A stretch of 13,601 nt of DNA from Candidatus Micrarchaeia archaeon. Lineage in GTDB: Archaea; Micrarchaeota; Micrarchaeia; Micrarchaeales; CABMGC01. Where the stretch lies: contig JBMFWW010000005.1 in NCBI GenBank assembly GCA_049964835.1, positions 22,047 through 35,647 of the forward strand, in the 5' to 3' direction. Below the pieces are notes generated by a model. That model saw only the letters and a program-made list of their open reading frames with translations, searched no databases and was not told the origin of the DNA. How positions within the stretch are numbered: position 1 is the first letter of the stretch; every line of letters starts with the position of its first letter. Shown piece after piece: positions 1,777 through 13,600 of the stretch. The translations under genes and the position numbers were made by a program.

Positions 1777-2154
1777 ATGAAGCAGGCAATAAAGGAGTCG
1801 TATAAGGCACATAGAGTAGAACGATTACTATTCGATCTGAAGTCATCCTTTGTAATAGTTGAAGGGAAGCACGATCTAAATGTGTTGAATAAATTAGGTA
1901 TAAAATCATACACATATGAAAGTGTGATGCGCAAAATAAATGTCCCAACAGAAAAGGCTATTCTAATGATGGATTTAGATAGACGTGGAGTTGCAAAGGC
2001 AGAGATGGTTTCATCCTTGCTTTTAGGCGAAAATATAGCAGTAGATAATAAAACGGGCAGGTCTCTGCTTCTTCTTCTAAACACTATCCACGTAGAAGGA
2101 ATACTTACTCCTGTTGAGCAGTTATTTAAAATAGAAAAACAAAACGTGATATAA
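1777..2154 (+). CDS. Stand-alone TOPRIM-domain protein (small primase-like/RNase M5-like)
   Basis: Contains TOPRIM motifs VIVEGKHD and MMDLDRRG (DxD). Its stop abuts the dnaG start (TAA ATG), suggesting an operon. Confidence 0.85.
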   Translation: MKQAIKESYKAHRVERLLFDLKSSFVIVEGKHDLNVLNKLGIKSYTYESVMRKINVPTEKAILMMDLDRRGVAKAEMVSSLLLGENIAVDNKTGRSLLLLLNTIHVEGILTPVEQLFKIEKQNVI

Positions 2155-3576
2155 ATGGCGAAAACATATTTAGACATAGTAAAGTATATGGTAGAGGCAA
2201 AGTTCTCTATAAGCGGAATGGTAGACAAACCAGACATAATAGGTGCGGTATTTGGCCAGACTGAAGGTCTTTTAGGAGATGATTTAGATTTAAGAGAGCT
2301 CCAAAAGAGCGGAAAGATTGGAAGAATAGAGATAGATTTTCAACAATCAAACAACAAGAGCTTTGGAAAGCTTTTCTTACCTGCATCATTAGATAGGATA
2401 GAGACATGTATCCTTGCTGCAGCTGTAGAGTCTGTTGATCGTGTTGGTCCTTATGAATCCCAGTTCTCTGTGGAAAAGATAGAGGATACAAGATCTGAGA
2501 AAAGAAGAAAGATACTCACAAGAGCTAAGGATCTTGTAAAGCTACTGCTCAATACTGAGATACCAGATAGCAAGGAGCTAAGCGAGATGGTCCAATCTGA
2601 CGTAAGAACTAGCGAGATAACTACTTATGGTCCAGAGAAGCTTCCAGCAGGTCCCGAGGTAGGAAAAAGTGCCGAACTTGTAATAGTAGAAGGCAGAGCA
2701 GATGTAATCAACCTATTAAGAAATGATGTTACTCATGTCATAGCAGTAGGCGGCGCATCAGCTGTTCCTAAATCAATAATAGATCTTTGTAGGCAAAAAG
2801 AGGTTACTGTATTCTTAGATGGAGATCGCGGCGGAGATATGATACTAAAGAACATATCCTCTGTTGCAGATGTTGATTATGTTGCAAGAGCTCCAGATGG
2901 TAAAGAGGTTGAAGATCTTACAAGAAAGGAAATAATAAAATCATTAAGAACAAAGATACCTTTAGATCAGTATCATCCTGGCTATAGGCAAAGACAAGAA
3001 CCTGCTCAAGACTATTCAGAAAAATCTAATATGAATGAAAACAATAAACTCGACAGCAACGGTAGCAACAATAGTGGCAGCAATGGCAACAACACAAACA
3101 GCCAAAACCAAAGATTTACAAATAATAGGCAGGAGTACTCAAGGCAGAAAGATACTAACTCATATTCTTCATACAAAAGCAAAACAGAAGATAATAAGAG
3201 ATATGAAAGCACAACAAAAGACACCCAAGAAAGTATGAAAACTGATGACGCTACGGAGCATACAAAACCAGCACTTGAAAGTGTAGTACTAACTGAGTAT
3301 TTAAATGGTCTTGAAGCGCTTTCAGGTACTCTTAGAAGCAGACTTTATGACAGCACCGGAAATATGATGAAGGAGATACCTATTCGCGATCTTCTTTCTT
3401 CAGTTCAAGCTTCTAATGGTGTACATGCAATAGTTCTCGATGGTGTAATAACCCAAAGACTTGTAGAGTTGTCAATTCAAAAAGGTGTAAAGGCAATCTA
3501 TGGCATAAGAGCAAATCCAATGCCTAAAAAGCATCAAGAGATACTGCTTTATACAAAGGAGCATGGGCAGGAGTAA
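2155..3576 (+). CDS. dnaG: Archaeal DnaG-like primase (exosome-associated)
   Basis: Archaeal DnaG N-terminus VDKPDIIGAVFGQTEGLLGDDLDLRELQKSGKIGRI, TOPRIM motifs IVEGRADV and FLDGDRGG, ARAPDGKEVE, and C-terminal DGVITQRLV. A low-complexity N/S/Q linker lies at ~2980-3270. Confidence 0.95.
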   Translation: MAKTYLDIVKYMVEAKFSISGMVDKPDIIGAVFGQTEGLLGDDLDLRELQKSGKIGRIEIDFQQSNNKSFGKLFLPASLDRIETCILAAAVESVDRVGPYESQFSVEKIEDTRSEKRRKILTRAKDLVKLLLNTEIPDSKELSEMVQSDVRTSEITTYGPEKLPAGPEVGKSAELVIVEGRADVINLLRNDVTHVIAVGGASAVPKSIIDLCRQKEVTVFLDGDRGGDMILKNISSVADVDYVARAPDGKEVEDLTRKEIIKSLRTKIPLDQYHPGYRQRQEPAQDYSEKSNMNENNKLDSNGSNNSGSNGNNTNSQNQRFTNNRQEYSRQKDTNSYSSYKSKTEDNKRYESTTKDTQESMKTDDATEHTKPALESVVLTEYLNGLEALSGTLRSRLYDSTGNMMKEIPIRDLLSSVQASNGVHAIVLDGVITQRLVELSIQKGVKAIYGIRANPMPKKHQEILLYTKEHGQE

Positions 3577-3748: not shown

Positions 3749-5680
3749 TTAGTGCTTTATTCCGAGTGTCATAAGTATAAATGCATATTTAAATGCTAGC
3801 GATTTATATCTTTCTTCATTTTTAGAACTCATTACATGTCCTCCTGAAATGTTTATCCTCAATAATAATAAATTATTATCACTTTTCATTTTTCTCATTT
3901 TTGCAATAAATTTTAATACTTCCAAATAATAAACTTTTACATCATTTATTCCAATAATTACAAGAATATTAGGATATCGTTGCGATTTAATATTTTCATA
4001 AGGAGAGTAAGACTTAATATAATTATAATACTTTTTTTTATTTGGGTTACCCCATTCTTTATACTCTCTTATGGTAAATGGGCGTTTTTTATCTGATATT
4101 TTACTTAATAACTCTACAACTGGTGATGTCATTACTGCAGCTTTAAATAATTCTGGTCTTTTATTTATTACAGATCCGATAAGCAATCCACCGGCACTAG
4201 CTCCTTCAATAACTAGTAACTCTTTAGATGTATATCTTTTAGCTATCAAATGTTCTGCACAGGCTACGAAATCATTAAACGTATTTTTCTTTTTTAATAA
4301 TTTACCTTCTTGATACCATCGACTACCTTTTTCAGAACCTCCTCTAATATGTGCTATTCCAAAAATAACTCCTCTATCAAGCAAACTCAACCGCTCAACT
4401 GAAAATGTTGGTAAATAACAAATTCCATAAGCCCCATATCCCCAAAGTAACATCGGTTGCCTTTTATTTCTGTTTAACTCTTTTTTATAAATAATTGAAA
4501 TAGGTATTTTATTTCCATCTTTCGCAGTAGCATAAATTTTTTCTGTTTTATAATTAGAACTATTATACTTTTTTATTTTATCTATCTCATTTAATTTTAA
4601 AATATTATTATCCATATCATATTCCAATAATGATTTAGGAATGGTAAATGAGCTATAAATCAAGCGTAAGTTTTTACTATTAAAATCTTGATATGTATCA
4701 AATGAAACGGTACACATTTTTTGGGGCATTTTAATAAATTTTTTAGTTCCTGTAACTATATTTAAAACAATAATTTTATTTGTTGCGTCTGAAATAACTT
4801 TAATTACTATATAATTACGAAATACCTTAAAACTATCTAATTTATTATTTTTATTATTTGGAATTAACGTTTTCCAATTTTCTTTTAGTTTGTTATTAAC
4901 TGGTGTTCTAACTAACTTAAAATTAGGCGCATTTTCATTTGTTAACATATAAAAATATTTACCAAACTGTTCAATATAACATATACTTTTTTTGTTCTTA
5001 TTGAAAAGTTTTAAATCATTCTTATAATCCCCTATTTGGATAAATCTTATTTCTGTAGAATCAATCCCAATCGAATATAAAAAAAGAAATTTTTCACTTT
5101 CAGATTTTTTAACAGATAAATAGTAATAAGCGTTTTTTTCTTCATATAATAACTTATTCTTTTTAAATTTATCTATAAAATTTGAAATATAAGCTCTATA
5201 AGATCTATATATTTTATCAATAGTTGTATAAACTATTGTGTTATCATCTAACCACTCTAACTCCCACACTCCGGTTATTTTTTTAATAATTTTATCTGTA
5301 CTTATTTTTTTAATATATGTTATATACTCTTCTGTTCCTGTTGTATTAACTGAATAAGCAATAAATGTGTTATTTGTACTAATTTTAAAATCATCAAATA
5401 AAAAGTATTTATGTCCTTCTGCAATTTTATTAAGATCTAAAATAAGTTCCTCTTTTTTATTCAAGGAGTTTTTTCTAAAATATGTCTTATACTGCGCACC
5501 GTTTTTAATTTTCCAATAATACTCATACTCTTTTATTTTTATAACATTTGAAAAACTAATACTTTTATATCGATTTTTAATCTCATTATATATTTTATTT
5601 TGTAATTCAGAAGTCTGTGCCATTATTGAATTAGTATACTCATTTTCTTTTTTTATATATGCCTTAATCGTTTTTACCAT
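3749..5680 (-). CDS. ptrB: S9A serine peptidase, oligopeptidase B (protease II)-like
   Basis: Motifs ENEYT (N-terminal), LLWGYGAYG, AHIRGGSEKG..WY..GK..KK.NTFNDF, nucleophile GASAGG, EWGNP, SYSPYEN, catalytic Asp in NDVKV and His in GGH. The N-terminus may be shortened (see findings). Confidence 0.9.
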   Translation of the reverse strand: MVKTIKAYIKKENEYTNSIMAQTSELQNKIYNEIKNRYKSISFSNVIKIKEYEYYWKIKNGAQYKTYFRKNSLNKKEELILDLNKIAEGHKYFLFDDFKISTNNTFIAYSVNTTGTEEYITYIKKISTDKIIKKITGVWELEWLDDNTIVYTTIDKIYRSYRAYISNFIDKFKKNKLLYEEKNAYYYLSVKKSESEKFLFLYSIGIDSTEIRFIQIGDYKNDLKLFNKNKKSICYIEQFGKYFYMLTNENAPNFKLVRTPVNNKLKENWKTLIPNNKNNKLDSFKVFRNYIVIKVISDATNKIIVLNIVTGTKKFIKMPQKMCTVSFDTYQDFNSKNLRLIYSSFTIPKSLLEYDMDNNILKLNEIDKIKKYNSSNYKTEKIYATAKDGNKIPISIIYKKELNRNKRQPMLLWGYGAYGICYLPTFSVERLSLLDRGVIFGIAHIRGGSEKGSRWYQEGKLLKKKNTFNDFVACAEHLIAKRYTSKELLVIEGASAGGLLIGSVINKRPELFKAAVMTSPVVELLSKISDKKRPFTIREYKEWGNPNKKKYYNYIKSYSPYENIKSQRYPNILVIIGINDVKVYYLEVLKFIAKMRKMKSDNNLLLLRINISGGHVMSSKNEERYKSLAFKYAFILMTLGIKH

Positions 5681-5807
5681 GTTTATCTTCCACTAATGAA
5701 CAATTATCCGCTTCATTTTTTAACTGTTTTTGAATTTTTCTTTATCGATAATACTTTTTTCATGTAATCTTATAAAATATATAAACACATCATTTATTAA
5801 TTTAATC

Positions 5808-7037
5808 TTATTCAGCAAATAATGGTTTTATATGTAGTGGGCATAATGGCAAATCATTGTTTATATTTTCTTTATAATTCAAAACAGATCCAGTACGACA
5901 GTAATCAAAATGCTCACATTTTTTACATACATTCGGTATACTTGCGTTTCTTAACATTTCTAAATTTTTATTATTATTCCATAATTTGCTTATACCCTCT
6001 TGAAAGACATTGCCCAAAAAAGCTTTATTATGTGGTAAATCATATGTAGTGCTATAAGTTGATCCGTCATACAAAATATGTAAAACTCTTCTAGTATCTA
6101 TTGTTCCATATAAAATATTCGATAAGTTCTTATCATATTCTAGATCCATATCCTCATAAATCAGAAAAGGGAAATTTGTACGTGAAGTTATCTTAACATT
6201 ATATTTTTTACCAATTATCATGGCTTTTTTAAGAATTTCTTTAAAATCCCAAAAATCTATTCCATCTTTTTGGTTAATAGAACCAAAATCACTTTTACTC
6301 CAATGAAATAAAGTTATTGCTTTTATACCATTATCACACAAAAACTTTATAGTTTCTAATACTGAATCTTTATTATTTTTCGTAATTAAAGTTGTAACAT
6401 GCGTTTTTAATCCCTTATTTATTACTCTGTCCAAAAAATTCAGTTCTTTATTTAGTGCTACGTTATTATTTACAATATCTGCATGTATTTTAGGCAAATG
6501 TGAGTGAAATGATAAACTAAATGATATATCATATTCAACTATCTTATTTATTAGATTTTCATTATACATTGTTCCATTGCTTGATATTGAAATAATCAAA
6601 TCTCTTTTATAAGCGATATCCAAAAGCCATCCCAAATCCCTATATAATAAGGGTTCGCCACCTAGAATAGATAAAGAAAAAATACCATTTTCAACTAATT
6701 CATTCATTATGCTAATAGCATTTTTTCTACTTAAGCCATTTATTTTATTATCTAATCTATTCCCAATATAACAAAATTTACATCTTTCGTTACAAAATAA
6801 TGTAGGATATAAATCTACTGTAGTTGGAGCTGAAAGTATATCACTTCTGAGAATCTTGCTTTTTAGAAATTTAATTTCGGATGAATCAAAAAATTCATAT
6901 TTATTATTTTTTGCTACTTCAACTCCCCTACTAAAATCTAAATTTTTATTAGTTTTATAAGTGTATATTTTATCCTATTTATTATCATAAAATAAATAAC
7001 CAAAAAACTCCTTTCTAACAAATAATCTGTATACCAT
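5808..7037 (-). pseudogene. Radical SAM/SPASM peptide maturase with N-terminal RRE-like segment, interrupted by an in-frame TAG at codon 21
   Basis: The tracked ORF 5808..6707 lacks the SAM motif. The same frame extends to ATG 7037: MVYRLFVRKEFFGYLFYDNK*DKIY...LSAPTTVDLYPTLFCNERCKFCY (CxxxCxxC at 6794-6771), then GGEP, SSNG, and C-terminal LGNV....I..LW and CKKCEHFDYC...CP. The TAG is at 6977-6975. Confidence 0.85.
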
Positions 7038-7066
7038 AAATATCTAGTTGGTTATTAATATGTTGT

Positions 7067-7201
7067 TTATTTTCTTTTGATTGGACTATAACTTGGCCAC
7101 TTTTCTGATCTTGGCATACCAAATTGTTTACTATTCACGGCCTCTTCAATTTTTATAACTGAAATTATCTTATTTTCAGTTACAATTTTTCTTAATTTCA
7201 T
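7067..7201 (-). CDS. Candidate RiPP precursor peptide, 44 aa: MKLRKIVTENKIISVIKIEEAVNSKQFGMPRSEKWPSYSPIKRK
   Basis: Clean ATG..TAA ORF with a GGTGA SD just upstream and a BRE/TATA ~30 nt upstream. It ends 29 nt before the radical SAM ATG and is below the ORF-track size cutoff. Confidence 0.75.
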   Translation of the reverse strand: MKLRKIVTENKIISVIKIEEAVNSKQFGMPRSEKWPSYSPIKRK

Positions 7202-7205
7202 TATT

Positions 7206-7245
7206 TCACCAATATTTATTATTCTTTCCTGTATAAATACTTTCT
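7206..7245 (-). promoter_or_regulatory. Archaeal promoter (BRE+TATA) and SD for the precursor-rSAM-peptidase operon
   Basis: The minus strand reads AGAAAG-TATTTATA (7245-7232), then GGTGA (7210-7206) before ATG 7201. Confidence 0.55.
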
Positions 7246-7290
7246 ACCATAATTATTAGATTCTTTAGAAAAAAAAACAAAAAGTATTAT

Positions 7291-7317
7291 ACTAATTTAG
7301 AAATTTTCTAATTTAGT
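7291..7317. promoter_or_regulatory. Inverted repeat upstream of the precursor promoter
   Basis: ACTAATTTAGAAA-t-TTTCTAATTTAGT: 13-bp arms with one mismatch, containing CTAATTTAG twice. Confidence 0.35.
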
Positions 7318-7361
7318 CAAATAAATATGTTGTTAGAGTAAATTACAAACTAAATAGTTCT

Positions 7362-8276
7362 CTATGACAATTCAGAAAGCTTTTTCATATTCATTCCAAA
7401 TTTTTCAGAAAGAAGGAAATTTAAAATATCCTTACATTCAAAAACATGTCCAGAACCGATAACCAACGCAACACTCTTAGTTGTTTCAAGTTCCTTTAAA
7501 ACTCGCTCTATAATATGGGTATTTCTATATGCTTCAAGATAAGCGCTAGCCTTGTTTATTGGATATTTAACACAATATGGAAATGGAACTGTAAGCTCTT
7601 CATAATTTTGTATATCAGAAAAACTCTTTCCAGTATTTTTAATATTATTATGCTCAATAAAAGTATTAATCCCTGCATCTATCTCTGGCGAATACTGTTT
7701 CATCAACTCTAAAAATTGGTTTTTGTAAGAGTATAGAGAACCATTTTCATTTAAAAACTCCCATTTAAGTACATCTAGTGTTTTTTCATAAACCTCTTCA
7801 TTACTCTTATCTAACATATTGCCCTTAAAGTACCTATATATGCTTACAAAGTTCCAATAAACTCCAAGCTCAATTCCTGTATACTGCTTTTTGTCATATT
7901 CCGAAAGTATTTTCAAATAAGTGGCTCTTGAAAGATTAATTCCAAGAACCGTTGATTCAAATAAAAAGGACAACCTAGCTCCTATACCTACCTCATCCCC
8001 CTGAGCTACTAATTTTTCTATTCTGCTCTGTGGCGTGTTCTCATCAATCTCAAGAAATGTAGTTTTAGGCCGAAATCTTTTGAATACGCTTGAAAATGCA
8101 TCTATAGTATCTCCAGTTAGCTGCTGGTGTCTATGGCCTAAGAACAAAAACGTTTTTTCATTATTATAATAAAGTACACTGTTATCTAAAAATAACTCTT
8201 TTTGTGTCATGATTTTATAGTTGGTCTTTGGTATATGCTTGTATATAAGGTATTCATAAAATTCTTCTGGCGCCAT
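7362..8276 (-). CDS. TraB/GumN/TIKI-like (EreA/ChaN-fold) putative metal-dependent hydrolase or protease
   Basis: Ordered motifs FLFLGHRH, RPKTTFLE, GDE, YRNTHI and LVIGSGH match the GxxH...E...E...RN...GxxH pattern of this superfamily. Confidence 0.55.
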   Translation of the reverse strand: MAPEEFYEYLIYKHIPKTNYKIMTQKELFLDNSVLYYNNEKTFLFLGHRHQQLTGDTIDAFSSVFKRFRPKTTFLEIDENTPQSRIEKLVAQGDEVGIGARLSFLFESTVLGINLSRATYLKILSEYDKKQYTGIELGVYWNFVSIYRYFKGNMLDKSNEEVYEKTLDVLKWEFLNENGSLYSYKNQFLELMKQYSPEIDAGINTFIEHNNIKNTGKSFSDIQNYEELTVPFPYCVKYPINKASAYLEAYRNTHIIERVLKELETTKSVALVIGSGHVFECKDILNFLLSEKFGMNMKKLSELS

Positions 8277-8370: not shown

Positions 8371-8754
8371 AACATTATTGGGGACAAGTTTCAATTTCCA
8401 AAAGAAAAAGAGGTAGATTCTATGTTAAAACGATGTTTTTATTGGTATCCTACAAAAATGATCAAATATTTAAATTTTTGGCTTAAAAATAATAAAGTAA
8501 TATCTTTTAATAGAATACCGCAATATATTTCATCTTTAAATGCTGGAATTAAACAATTAAAAGATAAAAATTATCATATTTTCTATGTGGATGTCTCTTT
8601 AAATGAAATTAAAAAAGCTGGATTTACGACAGGCAAGGTAATCATTCCAGAATTACAACCTTTATACCTTGCTGAAGAATCAAAAATGCTTTATAGTATA
8701 CATGGTGGAAATATTAAACCCGATAAAAATCTTAAACCACAACCGTTTTGTTAA
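8371..8754 (+). pseudogene. C-terminal fragment of a YcaO cyclodehydratase
   Basis: Contains IFYVDVS...GFTTGKVIIPELQPL and terminal KPQPFC (PxP-type YcaO C-terminus), directly before a SagB gene. It is only ~110-130 aa and lacks the N-terminal ATP-binding motifs. The frame is open upstream of ATG 8422 without another start codon, so the left boundary is approximate. Confidence 0.75.
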
Positions 8755-8765
8755 AAGTGTTTATT

Positions 8766-9467
8766 ATGTTAAAAGACGTTGAGGAATTTTATAAAAAAAC
8801 TAAACTTACTGAAATATCTCTTCCTAAAGGTAAAGCACCAATAGAATATATTCATGTATTCCATAAAGAATATCCAAGATTTTATTCTATAAAATTACCA
8901 CGCAGTTCAAAAGGCGGTGAGTATAATAAATTATTAAATACACGAAAATCTGTCAGACTTTTTTCAAATAAATTTATTTCAATTCAAACATTGGCAAATA
9001 TTTTTAAATCATGTGCAATTATAAAAAACAATCCTGAGAGAAGGTGTTATCCTTCAGCAGGTGTAAGGTTTCCAATAGAAATATATCTGGTAGCGTTCAG
9101 AATAAAAAATTTAAAACCAGGAGCATACCATCTAAATATTAAAAAATTTTCATTAGAGTTGTTATTAAAAACTAATTTAAGAAAATATGAACAGGAATTA
9201 GTATCTCCTTTCCTAAATAATACCGCAGGTATTATAATATTGACATCAGCAATATCACGTTCTGAAGTTAAATATGGATATAAATCATATCCGTTTTCAT
9301 TATTAGAAGCCGGACATATAAGTCAAAATATATTACTTTCTTGTACTAAATATAATGTAGGTAGTTGTCCAGTAGGTTGATTTATAAATGATACTATTAC
9401 AAAAATTTTAGATCTAACTGACGATGAGATTCCGTTAGAAACCATAGGTTTTGGATATTCAATATAA
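8766..9467 (+). pseudogene. SagB/ThcOx-type FMN-dependent azoline dehydrogenase with an in-frame TGA near the C-terminus
   Basis: Motifs KEYPRF..IKLP, RKSVRLF, RCYPSAGVRFPIEIY, GAYH, KYG and LEAGHISQN. After CPVG-TGA (9378-9380) the frame continues FINDTITKILDLTDDEIPLETIGFGYSI-TAA (9467), completing the usual CPxGGFxD..L.L...E...G terminus. The likely start is ATG 8766. Confidence 0.85.
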
Positions 9468-10724: not shown

Positions 10725-11180
10725 GAACTTGACAAATTAAATATCTTTGTGTTTATAGTATTTTGTGGAATTTCTCTTCTCTTTTTGTCGTCGTAAGACG
10801 ATTTACCGTTAGGCTCCTGAGCAACAGATACAACGAGTGCATCGGTCGCCTGCCAGGAGATGTATAAAATGAAATTATATGAGTCAAAGAATAAAATACT
10901 AGAGATTTGGGCAACAGCCCGGGTTATAGTCCAGAAATATGGGCATAGAAAGAAGTTTGCAAAGCATATTGTTGCATTTGTAATTAAACAAATGAAACAT
11001 TTTACAGATGAGGAGCTTGCAGACTTTTTACTTGTGGATAAGATTGGTAAAATATTAGGATATAAAAAGAGACCGCACGCATCAGTATTTTCCAAGGTTA
11101 GAAAAAGGTCTGATCCCAAAATTTTTGAGGATATGTATAATTGGTTTCTAAAAGAAAAGTATGTAGGAAGGCAGATAAAA
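10725..11180 (+). mobile_element. IS remnant: putative left end or leader plus DDE-transposase N-terminal (DUF772-like, IS4/IS5-type) domain, catalytic domain missing
   Basis: Reads F..KQMKHFTDEELADFL....KILGYKKRPHASVFSKVRKR....F, the PxxSxFSxxRxR signature of transposase N-terminal domains. No DDE region follows. An AGGAG SD at 10855-10859 favours ATG 10869. No partner inverted repeat was found. Confidence 0.6.
10787..10859 (-). ncRNA. Candidate structured RNA overlapping the transposase RBS (antisense or leader)
   Basis: Minus strand: CUCCUG-GCA-GGCGAC-C-GAUGCA-[CUCGU]-UGUAUC-U-GUUGCU-CAGGAG, three 6-bp helices with G-U pairs. Two small hairpins follow. The segment is GC-rich in an AT-rich context. 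Confidence 0.4.
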
Positions 11181-11354
11181 ATAAGAGTAGAAAAAGATAA
11201 GGCCTTTGTACAAGATCTAAGAACCAATATGATATTTTTAACTACCGCGGATGTTGCAAAACGAATAAACATCATTTTAAATAAGACCTTTGAAGAGGCT
11301 TCTCGCTCCGATCCTGATATTCTTAAGTTATTTGAATACAGAAAAAGTGCGTAA
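10869..11354 (+). CDS. Chimeric ORF: transposase N-terminal domain fused to a PqqD/RRE-like C-terminal segment
   Basis: After GRQIK (~11180) the sequence IRVEKDKAFVQDLRTNMIFLTTADVAKRINIIL aligns without gaps to the N-terminus of the other radical SAM (VRKEFFGYLFYDNK*DKIY). It stops 1 nt before ATG 11356. Confidence 0.55.
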   Translation: MKLYESKNKILEIWATARVIVQKYGHRKKFAKHIVAFVIKQMKHFTDEELADFLLVDKIGKILGYKKRPHASVFSKVRKRSDPKIFEDMYNWFLKEKYVGRQIKIRVEKDKAFVQDLRTNMIFLTTADVAKRINIILNKTFEEASRSDPDILKLFEYRKSA

Positions 11355-11355
11355 C

Positions 11356-12396
11356 ATGGAAAGGGTATATCCTGATTTTCCATTTAGGGTAGAGTTTGAA
11401 GTAACCAGTGTTTGCAATCTTGATTGTAAGTACTGTTATGCAAAACCGTTTACATGGAAAACGCCTTCATTTGAAAATATAGAGTATCTCTTTAAAAAAA
11501 CAAAAGAGGAAGCAGATCCTTTTGAGACTGTGCTTGTAGGCGGAGAGCCATTTATAAGAACAGATATGGTTTCATTAATTGAACTTGCAAATAATGTATT
11601 CAGAAGAGGCGTTCAAATAAGTACTAATGGAACATTGTTATCAAGGCTTGATAAAAAGCAGCTCATACGCTTAAAGGATGCAGTAAATGATGGGGTTTCA
11701 CTGCAGGTATCTATAGATAGTTTAAATCCAAGTATAAATGACATTACCAGAGGAAAGACCAAAGAGTCAATAGACGGCATAAATACACTTGAAAAGAGCG
11801 GCATACCCTTCTCCGTAGGGATAGTATTTACAAATGTAAATTCTAATGATATAGTTGCAACAACTTCTAAACTCATAAAAGAATACTCATATTTAGTTTC
11901 GTTAAATCTAGAGCCTCTCCAGCCAACTTCTATACTGGGCGCTGAGTACTTTGAATTAAAGCAGGAAAGCACCGAAATGAGACGACTCTTTAATTTAGTT
12001 AATGGTATTATTAAAGTTCATGGGAGGGACGAATTAAAACTTTATGGTATAGTAGAGGACTGCTCTGAATCTGTAAAGTTTGAGACGCCTGTTCTTGACA
12101 AATACGCATTTAAAACCTGCACCGCTGGCCTTGTTAGAGCTGCAGTTTTTGTTGATGGTTCAGTTACTCCTTGTTCATTAATACGTGATATAAAAATTGG
12201 AAATCTATATACAGATTCATGGGTAGGTATATGGCAGCGTTCCAGAGAAAGATTTGAGTCTATAAAAGATAGTGGTGTAAGCCAGTGTGCAATAAATCTT
12301 CTCCATGAGTCTAAAAGAAATGATAGCTCATTTGTATCACTTGCGGAGGTTGTTGAAAGAATAGAAAAAAGAAAAAGTAGAGTTCTTTCAAAGTAA
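11356..12396 (+). CDS. Radical SAM enzyme with Twitch/partial SPASM domain (PqqE/MftC-like group)
   Basis: Motifs CNLDCKYCY, GGEP, STNG, VSIDS, CTAG...DGSVTPC and IGNL....IW. ATG 11356, right after the upstream TAA, is a likelier start than 11290. Confidence 0.9.
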   Translation: MERVYPDFPFRVEFEVTSVCNLDCKYCYAKPFTWKTPSFENIEYLFKKTKEEADPFETVLVGGEPFIRTDMVSLIELANNVFRRGVQISTNGTLLSRLDKKQLIRLKDAVNDGVSLQVSIDSLNPSINDITRGKTKESIDGINTLEKSGIPFSVGIVFTNVNSNDIVATTSKLIKEYSYLVSLNLEPLQPTSILGAEYFELKQESTEMRRLFNLVNGIIKVHGRDELKLYGIVEDCSESVKFETPVLDKYAFKTCTAGLVRAAVFVDGSVTPCSLIRDIKIGNLYTDSWVGIWQRSRERFESIKDSGVSQCAINLLHESKRNDSSFVSLAEVVERIEKRKSRVLSK

Positions 12397-12459
12397 GAGA
12401 AGCATAGAAAAATATTTATGTATAAGTAGCAATTCAATACTGTTATATTGGTGTTATTT

Positions 12460-13191
12460 TTGAGCGTAAAAAAGGTTAAGGATGATACACTTGTTTTACA
12501 AGGCCATGAAAAACATTCAACAACAAATATTCTATCTGATTTCATATTGGGGAGCCAGGATGGCCTTGTAAATGTTCTTGGAATAATTCTTGGCATTTCA
12601 GCTGCAACAAGCGATATAAGACTTATCTTTGTTGCTGGACTCGCGGCATTAGGTGCAGAATCAATCTCTATGGGTGCAGTAGCCTATACATCGACTCTTG
12701 CAAGGCGTAAGTATTATCTAAAGGAGCGCGAACGTGAGCTAAGTGAAATGAAAAGTGTTCCAAAAACCGAGAAGGCTGAGATACGCAATATATTAAAGGA
12801 ATGGGGCTACTCTGGAAAGAATCTTGATAGCATGACAAATAAGATAGTAGCAAATCCAAAAGCCATGCTTGAGTTTATGATGTCCTTTGAGCTTAAGCTT
12901 TCACCAGTTTCAAAACATCAACCATTGCGCAGCTTCGGAATAGTCTTTGCTGCTACGATTCTGGGCTCTATAATTCCATTGATTCCATTCTTTTTCATAA
13001 ATAACATACATACTGGAGCTATACTCTCGTTAATATTAAGCGGCATAGTGCTTTTTGGAATAGGATATTATGAAGCAAAGAAAACGATAGGCTCTCTATG
13101 GAGAAATGGCATGCAGATGTTAATAATAGGCCTTTTGGCAGGTATAGCCGGTTACTTAATAGGCTACTTCGTAGGAGCCGTGCCTATATAA
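12460..13191 (+). CDS. VIT1/CCC1 family Fe/Mn transporter
   Basis: Motifs DFILGSQDGLV, AESISMGA..Y, E..RE..E, ELKL and IPLIPF, with five hydrophobic helices. A GGTG SD at 12450-12453 favours TTG 12460 (the ORF track starts at 12448). Confidence 0.92.
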   Translation: MSVKKVKDDTLVLQGHEKHSTTNILSDFILGSQDGLVNVLGIILGISAATSDIRLIFVAGLAALGAESISMGAVAYTSTLARRKYYLKERERELSEMKSVPKTEKAEIRNILKEWGYSGKNLDSMTNKIVANPKAMLEFMMSFELKLSPVSKHQPLRSFGIVFAATILGSIIPLIPFFFINNIHTGAILSLILSGIVLFGIGYYEAKKTIGSLWRNGMQMLIIGLLAGIAGYLIGYFVGAVPI

Positions 13192-13273: not shown

Positions 13274-13600
13274 CTATTTTTTTAACTTATTCAATTCAGG
13301 ATCTATCTTCATATACACCATTGTCCATTCAAATCCAAGTTTTTCAAATATTTTCCTATTTTTCTTTGTGGTTACAAGTTCCACATACTTTCTTTTTTTG
13401 CACCAATACTCTGTAAACATCTGAACTAAAAGCCTAGCAACTCCTTTTCTTCTGTATTTTTTAAGAACGTATATATTTTCAAGAAATAGGTTCTTAAACT
13501 TGCCATATCTTCTAATATTAAGTTCTCCTTGTATATAATCTACTATTTTTCCATCGCCATTGAATTTGTTTACCTTATACCTTTTTTCTATCAATTTTTC
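13274..13600 (-). CDS. GNAT-family acetyltransferase, 5'-partial
   Basis: Motif A LENIYVLKKYRRKGVARLLV and motif B N..IFEKLGF. The frame runs to the window edge. Confidence 0.8.
   Translation of the reverse strand, partial: EKLIEKRYKVNKFNGDGKIVDYIQGELNIRRYGKFKNLFLENIYVLKKYRRKGVARLLVQMFTEYWCKKRKYVELVTTKKNRKIFEKLGFEWTMVYMKIDPELNKLKK

Follow-up and report, generated by a model that had tools for sequence, protein, structure and literature searches.

A putative precursor peptide and its radical SAM maturase in a DPANN-type archaeon: a possible divergent branch of the streptide class

Streptide systems are recognized by a bond between the β-carbon of a Lys and C7 of a Trp. To our knowledge, surveys of the radical-SAM-modified peptides of this group have dealt almost exclusively with streptococci and other bacteria. 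SuiB carries three [4Fe-4S] clusters and joins Lys2 to Trp6 of its substrate SuiA, with its cluster AuxI taking up the electron of the Lys-Trp radical (PMC9012708). WprB is a radical SAM enzyme, reported to lack the AuxI cysteines, that cross-links Trp-C5 to Arg-Cγ, and its sequence cluster takes in some archaeal members (PMC11851443). WprA has the motif W-P-R, often as three repeats, and forms a three-residue ring with the help of the chaperone WprC; precursors of this kind, with W-P-R or a single W-x-R/K, have the Trp first (PMC11851443). S9-family proteases occur in RiPP pathways as well, examples being FlaP, OphP, MpgP and WprP2 (PMC12957482, available portion). In the available part of a survey of RiPPs from archaea, the radical SAM classes named are ranthipeptides and sactipeptides, and the word streptide is absent from that part. 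In the literature searched, no report of a cassette of this kind was found for DPANN or Micrarchaeota.

The window, i.e. the whole stretch of 13,601 nucleotides that was analysed, comes from a genome of 0.81 Mb (46 contigs, 94% complete) which encodes an archaeal-type DnaG (NF003108, 488 bits). The host is a small-genome DPANN-type archaeon. Within the window, a gene for a 44-aa peptide is followed on the same strand by that of a radical SAM enzyme. The favoured reading, with a probability of about 0.6, is that the two genes form a cassette belonging to a divergent and rare branch of the streptide (KxxxW; StrB/SuiB) class. As in the streptide systems (StrA/SuiA with StrB/SuiB; TIGR04080; PDB 5V1Q/5V1S/5V1T), a small precursor gene immediately precedes that of a radical SAM/SPASM-type enzyme. 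The hosts, a DPANN archaeon and uncultured organisms from the environment, differ in not being streptococci.

The precursor peptide and its family

7067..7201, minus strand: precursor peptide gene, ATG start and TAA stop; 44 aa, MKLRKIVTENKIISVIKIEEAVNSKQFGMPRSEKWPSYSPIKRK
7118-7120 (G28), 7109-7111 (R31) and 7097-7099 (W35), minus strand: core codons of the peptide gene
7206..7210, minus strand: GGTGA, a putative Shine-Dalgarno-like element 4 nt 5′ of the peptide ATG

The initial annotation described an ORF at 7067-7201 with its aromatic residues and prolines in the C-terminal part and with no Cys, and this was exact on re-reading. The only aromatics are F27, W35 and Y38 and the only prolines P30, P36 and P40, all within the C-terminal 18 residues. 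The lack of Cys excludes sactionine chemistry, as had been stated. The leader would extend roughly over residues 1-25, and the core motif would read N23-x4-G28-M-P-R31-S-E-K-W35. A purine-rich element 5′ of the peptide ORF is present in L002, L017, L018, L020, L021 and L022. Of the nine peptide ORFs examined for it, including L031, a locus outside the family, six have such an element.

The G+C content of the window is 29%, and its six frames hold 75 ORFs of at least 30 aa; a 44-aa ORF therefore proves nothing by itself, and the case for it is one of conservation. Three close orthologs with 73-80% identity are found in other assemblies, with the reading frame kept. The N-terminus varies among them, and one ortholog shows a one-codon indel (an extra codon). 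Residues 16-33, W35, P36, Y38, P40 and K42-K44 are invariant in this close clade, K34 of the window peptide is replaced by Ser in all three orthologs, and S37 and S39 vary even among these peptides. The gene is present in one copy in the genome. The peptide and its three orthologs are present as called proteins in the protein collection that was searched, and neither Pfam nor NCBIfam gave a match for the 44-aa peptide or for three of its relatives. Longest-contig values of 3538 and 36609 are common to the peptide and enzyme records of two close orthologs, which fits a location of these two peptides and the two closest enzyme homologs on the same contigs.

Conservation extends beyond the close clade. 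A small ORF ends just 5′ of the enzyme gene at every one of the nine family loci that have readable upstream DNA (the window, L002, L016, L017, L018, L020, L021, L022 and L023), and this bears out the earlier proposal of a leader/core-type RiPP precursor for the radical SAM enzyme. The window and L002 peptides are related with an E-value of 2e-06 (BLASTP). A profile built from 12 peptides had 11 matches at E <= 0.001 among 1.84 billion representative proteins; nine are small peptides of the family, four of them new, and the remaining two are repeat proteins that are regarded as spurious.

The motif N-x4-G-h-x-[K/R]-x2-3-W is shared by 16 distinct peptides of the family. The positions of G28 and W35 are invariant (16/16), the residue at G+3 is always basic (Lys in 12, Arg in four), and Asn is found at G-5 in 14 of the 16. 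The Arg (R31) is a property of the window clade, where it is found in 4/4 peptides. From the basic residue to Trp the spacing is x3 in eight peptides and x2 in eight: the window peptide has R31-S-E-K-W35, four other members have K-x3-W, and eight have K-x2-W. The core of the L002 peptide, ..RFGMMKGDSWPKT, includes ..MKGDSW... The residue that follows Trp can be P, I, S, H, Y, N or G, and the L016, L017 and P0166 peptides reach their C-terminus one residue past Trp. The pattern G-x2-[KR]-x2-3-W within the last 22 residues occurs in 2 of 2892 small ORFs of the source genome, although this background count is post hoc because the motif was derived from the same data.

Generic features of a RiPP precursor are present: a small same-strand ORF beside the gene of a modifying enzyme, a conserved core, and retention in relatives. 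As judged by sequence comparison, the 44-aa ORF is a real, conserved precursor peptide of the adjacent radical SAM enzyme.

The alignments also bear on the chemistry. Trp, one of the residues initially proposed for cross-linking, is the key residue by the ortholog alignment that had been called for, with W35 and G28 invariant and the frame kept in the three close orthologs. An expected conservation of the Trp, Tyr and Pro positions holds for Trp across the family; it does not hold for Y38, conserved in the close clade only, or for the residues past Trp. Of the chemistries considered, a Lys-Trp link, which came last in the initial annotation, has the best support for the family as a whole, but in the window peptide the conserved basic site is Arg31, and K34 is unconserved.

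The annotation had also suggested triceptide-like three-residue cyclophanes at WPS or YSP, with S9 cleavage at Pro and basic sites. The WP dipeptide of the window clade, L002 and L016 is compatible with such rings, as is the invariance of Y38 and P40 inside the close clade. However, the position after Trp is open to seven different residues. Rings at WPS or YSP are unsupported, because the three family members that stop one residue after Trp have no third residue to offer. On the enzyme side, the cyclophane-maturase model AmcB reaches only 60.5 bits, and for L018 alone. With the distribution of the S9 gene, discussed below, also counted, such cyclophanes seem quite improbable.

The radical SAM maturase and its relatives

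5808..7037, minus strand: radical SAM maturase gene, 409 codons, which starts 29 nt past the peptide stop
6975..6977, minus strand: in-frame amber TAG at maturase codon 21, where the two closest orthologs (87% and 85%) have Glu

The radical SAM motif of the maturase is CNERCKFC, and all 14 aligned sequences keep its cysteines C82, C86 and C89. In the C-terminal part the only invariant cysteines are C371, C374, C380 and C399, which make up Cx2Cx5C plus one distal Cys. SuiB has CLSCGLLKICEGGC at this place, and the maturase family has there Cx2Cx5C without the fourth Cys of the Cx2Cx5Cx3C of SuiB; the Cys upstream of the C-terminal Cx2Cx5C is changed to Ser in most members. The family thus lacks the cysteine set of a full, two-auxiliary-cluster SPASM domain. 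By the usual SPASM assignment, we take the missing cysteines to be those of AuxI and the retained ones those of AuxII.

The two closest orthologs of the window enzyme are 87% and 85% identical to it, and both are uninterrupted proteins of 409 aa; the 85% ortholog is P0004. The L002 homolog is 36% identical over 411 columns (BLASTP, E 6e-93). The family is rare: 5.8 billion clusters gave 12 members at E <= 1e-40. The maturase was found in two of 61 relatives and in four of 248 genomes of the order. One of these four, G006 (E 1e-49), was left out of the family as another SPASM protein, which has a different radical SAM gene upstream and no such peptide. Outside the set compared are also L019, whose upstream DNA stops at 48 nt, and L014, which is a C-terminal fragment only. 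A pattern scan of genome contigs gave eight loci, of which only L004 is a true family member.

Structural comparisons point to SuiB. The family profile, searched against solved structures, has its best matches in 5v1q/5v1s/5v1t (E 1.1e-32), followed by SkfB at 4.9e-17. An AlphaFold model of P0004 (pLDDT 74.7, pTM 0.78) likewise has SuiB as its best fold match; ranks 1-5 are all SuiB chains, with TM values of 0.69/0.65 over 440 columns. Sequence and fold thus agree in the top solved match, a likeness to the streptide systems. The P0004 model differs in its short N-terminal domain, predicted to consist of six beta strands in residues 5-58 with no helices before the radical SAM core. The initial annotation had described the leader as typical of those that bind an RRE, and in the model this all-beta domain of about 60 residues has none of the helices that a canonical RRE contains. 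Complex predictions of P0004 with the P0040 peptide, both with alignments, scored 0.66, 0.11 and 0.09, the median being below the mark.

Among the NCBIfam models, the window enzyme matches TIGR04080, the model for KxxxW maturases, best, with 86.9 bits against a cut-off of 500. Other members score 84 (P0004), 58 (L002), 92.2 (L022) and 64.2 bits (L021), so that the family members scanned, at 58-92 bits, all differ from streptide maturases in falling below this cut-off. The GeoRSP model TIGR04303 gives 98.7 bits for P0004, 89.1 for L002 and 99.5 for L018, as high as or above TIGR04080. Several SPASM models score the maturase alike, at 60-100 bits, and it passes no curated family threshold. With TIGR04080 far below its cut-off and TIGR04303 at a similar level, the affinity to StrB seen in HMM scores alone amounts to a generic SPASM-level likeness, and the curated models do not place the family.

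In a metagenome scan, the best loci after the family itself, ranked by E-value over long matches, were L024, L031, L033 and L039, with 25%, 25%, 22% and 23% identity, respectively. The peptides upstream of the L031 and L039 enzymes end with ..FAKGDGW.., that upstream of L033 contains Cys/His repeats and is without the motif, and the upstream region of L024 is not covered by sequence. The L031 enzyme, which is of the KGDGW type, scores 256.8 bits on TIGR04080. SuiB as the best solved relative, together with KGDGW peptides at next-nearest loci, places the maturase family beside the KxxxW systems as a divergent branch.

The same data have to be weighed for other modifications of Trp35, such as a link to a residue other than the one at the Lys/Arg position, a WgkB-like double link, or a reaction without a cross-link, for instance methylation, epimerisation or hydroxylation. 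These gain from the lack of any curated threshold passed, from the similar scores of different SPASM models and from the missing AuxI cysteines; furthermore, the spacing between Lys or Arg and Trp is not fixed, and G28 is as invariant as W35. They are made unlikely, although still worth attention, by the Lys or Arg found at G+3 in all 16 peptides, by the wide margin by which SuiB is the best solved relative, and by the KGDGW precursors in two of the four next-nearest metagenome loci. The streptide-like reading is retained below.

The amber codon and the neighbouring genes

It should be pointed out that the maturase gene of the window carries a premature stop. The ORF listed by the program begins at 6707, past CxxxCxxC, while the frame is open from 6974 and continues beyond the TAG to the ATG at 7037. 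The 21 residues 5′ of the TAG belong to the protein family: they include four family-invariant positions (R8, E10, F12 and G13), and the BLASTP alignment with the L002 homolog runs through the TAG without a break. No in-frame ATG, GTG or TTG is found between the TAG and CxxxCxxC. The sequence AAAGGAG at about 7010-7016 was considered as a ribosome-binding site for the maturase and rejected because it is within the extended frame, where it encodes R-K-E that aligns with relatives.

A reading of TAG as a sense codon was ruled out. Of 678 ORFs of at least 150 aa, 392 end with TAA, 177 with TGA and 109 with TAG, little coding length would be gained, and no CUA anticodon is present among the 31 tRNAs found in the genome. 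The source genome uses the standard code, and TAG is an ordinary stop.

With TAG where the orthologs have Glu, the pathway may be dead in the source genome, or the assembly may be wrong. The balance leans slightly towards a decaying relic, with a maturase pseudogene and a peptide that, if produced, stays unmodified. Both closest orthologs (87% and 85%) have Glu at codon 21, the 31 tRNAs found include no suppressor, no alternative start is available ahead of CxxxCxxC, and a truncated YcaO gene nearby indicates that gene decay does occur in the region. On the other hand, the difference is one of a single base in a metagenome-assembled genome, and there is no further break in the 409-codon frame and none in the peptide ORF.

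Genes that surround the cassette in the window are as follows.

3749..5680, minus strand: S9 prolyl oligopeptidase-family gene (Peptidase_S9_N and Peptidase_S9), 127 nt 3′ of the maturase gene
7362..8276, minus strand: 304-aa ORF of no known family, upstream of the peptide gene with a 160-nt spacer
8422..8754, plus strand: C-terminal fragment of a YcaO (SagD-family) protein, 110 aa, model positions 251-343 of 377
8748..9380, plus strand: SagB-family dehydrogenase-like gene, 210 aa, with a Nitroreductase domain (TIGR03605, 81.4 bits vs 78.4)

The S9 gene had been put forward as a pathway partner, a role that the other loci do not sustain. Its position is suggestive, being on the same strand and directly downstream of a radical SAM maturase. 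S9 proteases act in some RiPP pathways, in one case beside a radical SAM cyclophane synthase (PMC12957482, available portion), and the arrangement resembles those systems. The window enzyme differs from them in being oligopeptidase B-like (413.9 bits on PRK10115, cut-off 1313), and the gene adjoins the cassette in only one of the six loci with at least 400 nt of downstream sequence: it is present in the window and absent from L004, L017, L018, L021 and L022. The S9 protein was found in three of 41 related genomes; of the 10 that belong to the same genus, none had it. Its relatives comprise one 77% match on a 4.2-kb contig, followed by bacterial oligopeptidase B-like proteins of at most 44%, and among the S9 matches there is no close ortholog on a contig sized like the 36.6-kb ortholog contig. 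This pattern also weighs against the three-residue cyclophanes, for which S9 cleavage had been invoked. The S9 enzyme is possible as a processing protease in the source genome only; since S9 proteases process some RiPPs a local role may exist, though it is unsupported, as is membership of a conserved cassette.

The genes 3′ of the maturase differ elsewhere: a PPDK-like gene in L004, GNAT acetyltransferases in L017 and L021, integrases in L018 and a methyltransferase in L022. Upstream genes differ as well, and the 304-aa ORF was not found beside the cassette in other loci. At E <= 10 this ORF has no Pfam match save one at chance level; the weak leads are DUF5694 (0.88) and Cofac_haem_bdg (0.87). 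Neighbours of the peptide and maturase genes are not part of a conserved cluster.

The SagB-family gene and the YcaO-like fragment are within 1.6 kb of the cassette, and the core Ser residues had been offered as their substrate, which would give an azoline or azole at Ser. Such a role is highly improbable. YcaO chemistry is unsupported because only the 110-aa C-terminal fragment remains, and from the model positions it covers this fragment is a remnant and not an intact cyclodehydratase. In addition, the two genes are on the strand opposite to that of the peptide, the peptide has no Cys, its S37 and S39 are unconserved in close orthologs, and no YcaO or SagB was found among the scanned neighbours of other family loci.

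Another difference from the streptide systems is regulatory, as no regulator domain was seen among the window ORFs. A scan of the window for sigma-70 promoters gave 29 sites, with 21.6 +/- 4.6 expected, but this consensus is inapplicable to an archaeon.

Proposed product and its meaning

By analogy with streptide, the N-terminal half of the peptide would act as leader. The maturase would abstract H from the side chain at the basic position (Arg31 in the window peptide, Lys in most relatives), leaving a carbon radical that would attack the indole of Trp35. The product would be a macrocycle of five residues, lighter by 2 Da. With the AuxI cysteines missing, the radical electron would need another exit, either the auxiliary cluster that remains or the radical SAM cluster itself. 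Some protease would afterwards cut off the leader; the oligopeptidase B-like S9 protein encoded next to the cassette is a candidate for this step in the source genome only. In that genome the pathway would have been recently inactivated by the TAG at codon 21, unless there is an assembly error at that base.

The peptide resembles the streptide precursors in having a conserved basic residue 3-4 positions ahead of an invariant Trp near the C-terminus, and the exact K-x3-W is present in four of its relatives. It departs from them in the Arg that replaces Lys in the window clade and, across the family, in the x2 spacing found in half of the members. Both features speak against placement in the streptide class, as do the TIGR04080 scores far under 500 bits and the TAG that interrupts the window maturase gene. 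The same applies to the absence of the cysteines that we take to be those of AuxI, the electron acceptor in SuiB.

WprA/WprB can be compared by description. The likeness is in a radical SAM enzyme without AuxI cysteines and, as proposed here, a Trp-Arg C-C link. The differences are that in the present family the basic residue precedes Trp and there is one motif per peptide, and that no WprC-like gene was identified.

A more specific proposal is that the window clade produces a previously unseen Arg-x3-Trp macrocycle, in which a side-chain carbon of Arg is joined to the indole of the Trp four positions further on, made by a SuiB-like enzyme that has lost AuxI and the helical part of its RRE, and that this would be the first archaeal RiPP of the streptide class. 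This is put forward tentatively, as the odds are against it.

The locus defines a small family, with nine peptide clusters among 1.84 billion representatives, which links the KxxxW systems to archaea and uncultured bacteria. It offers a natural replacement of Lys by Arg at the proposed donor position of the cross-link, and a maturase family that is taken to lack the cluster receiving the radical's electron in SuiB. With this link to archaea, the swap and the missing cluster, the 44-aa peptide and the 409-aa enzyme make a compact test of the chemistry's tolerance. That the cassette is kept in a 0.8 Mb genome raises the question of what use a secreted cyclic peptide may be to an episymbiont. Should an Arg-x3-Trp macrocycle indeed be formed, the product could act on the host or on competitors of the DPANN symbiont.

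Other modification-type genes and a possible cluster remnant in the window

Besides the peptide gene and the radical SAM maturase gene of the cassette, the window contains the following features.

7362–8276, minus strand: 304-aa ORF upstream of the peptide gene, with no match in a family search
7950–7923: terminator-like hairpin within the 304-aa ORF
8422–8754, plus strand: 110-aa ORF matching the SagD/YcaO model
8748–9380, plus strand: SagB-family gene, 210 aa (81.4 bits, passing the cut-off of 78.4)
10860–11354, plus strand: 164-aa ORF with a weak transposase-domain match (DUF772, E 0.055)
11290–12396, plus strand: second radical SAM/SPASM gene

The match of the 110-aa ORF is limited to positions 251–343 of the 377 in the SagD/YcaO model, i.e. 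the C-terminal third, and this ORF overlaps the start of the SagB-family gene. Judged from sequence, the YcaO fragment and the SagB gene seem to be what is left of a cluster for thiazole/oxazole peptides in which the first two thirds of YcaO have been lost. The site where these two thirds would have been is now occupied by the minus-strand ORF of 304 aa, for which a language-model atlas provides weak leads only (clusters DUF5694, 0.88, and Cofac_haem_bdg, 0.87).

The second radical SAM/SPASM gene is preceded by the 164-aa ORF. Its top matches are ScmE (84.6 bits) and WgkB (81.5 bits), both far under the respective cut-offs, and no small ORF that resembles a precursor and carries a clear motif was seen there.

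Base composition and the S9 peptidase

G+C content is 21–26% over the S9/radical SAM/peptide stretch (4501–7500), 37–40% over the DnaG gene (2001–3500) and 34–40% around the VIT1 gene (12001–13000). The cassette region is higher in A+T than some of its flanks. The S9 peptidase gene (3749–5680, minus strand) has one relative at 77%; all other nearest relatives are bacterial and oligopeptidase B-like, at no more than 44%, and include Zixibacteria. As the nearest relatives are mostly bacterial and the gene turned up in only three of 41 related archaeal genomes, sequence comparison suggests its acquisition from bacteria.

Related enzymes and their neighbours

The longer enzymes of the maturase family (441–443 aa, metagenome loci L021 and L022) have ~100 residues ahead of the radical SAM core, versus only ~60 in the shorter ones (403–412 aa); the recognition domain seems to have been trimmed in the shorter-enzyme branch. 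The ~60-residue part is all beta in the predicted structure of P0004, a close ortholog of the window maturase.

Two metagenome loci outside the family also have a small ORF before the radical SAM gene.

L031, 447–548: small ORF ending ..FAKGDGWKSKDFI
L039, about 1752–1853: small ORF ending ..FAKGDGWADGGAT

Both are precursors of the streptide type, from outside the named streptococci. On TIGR04080, the KxxxW cyclic peptide maturase model, the enzyme of L031 reaches 256.8 bits, still under the cut-off of 500.

A GNAT acetyltransferase gene lies directly 3′ of the maturase gene in two of the six loci with downstream sequence (L017, 2129–2527; L021, 4066–4518); that of the window (13274–13600) is only 6 kb from the cassette. 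Phage-integrase-family genes adjoin the cassette in two metagenome loci (L018, 4519–7153; L023, 11–961), a hint that mobile elements carry it from place to place.
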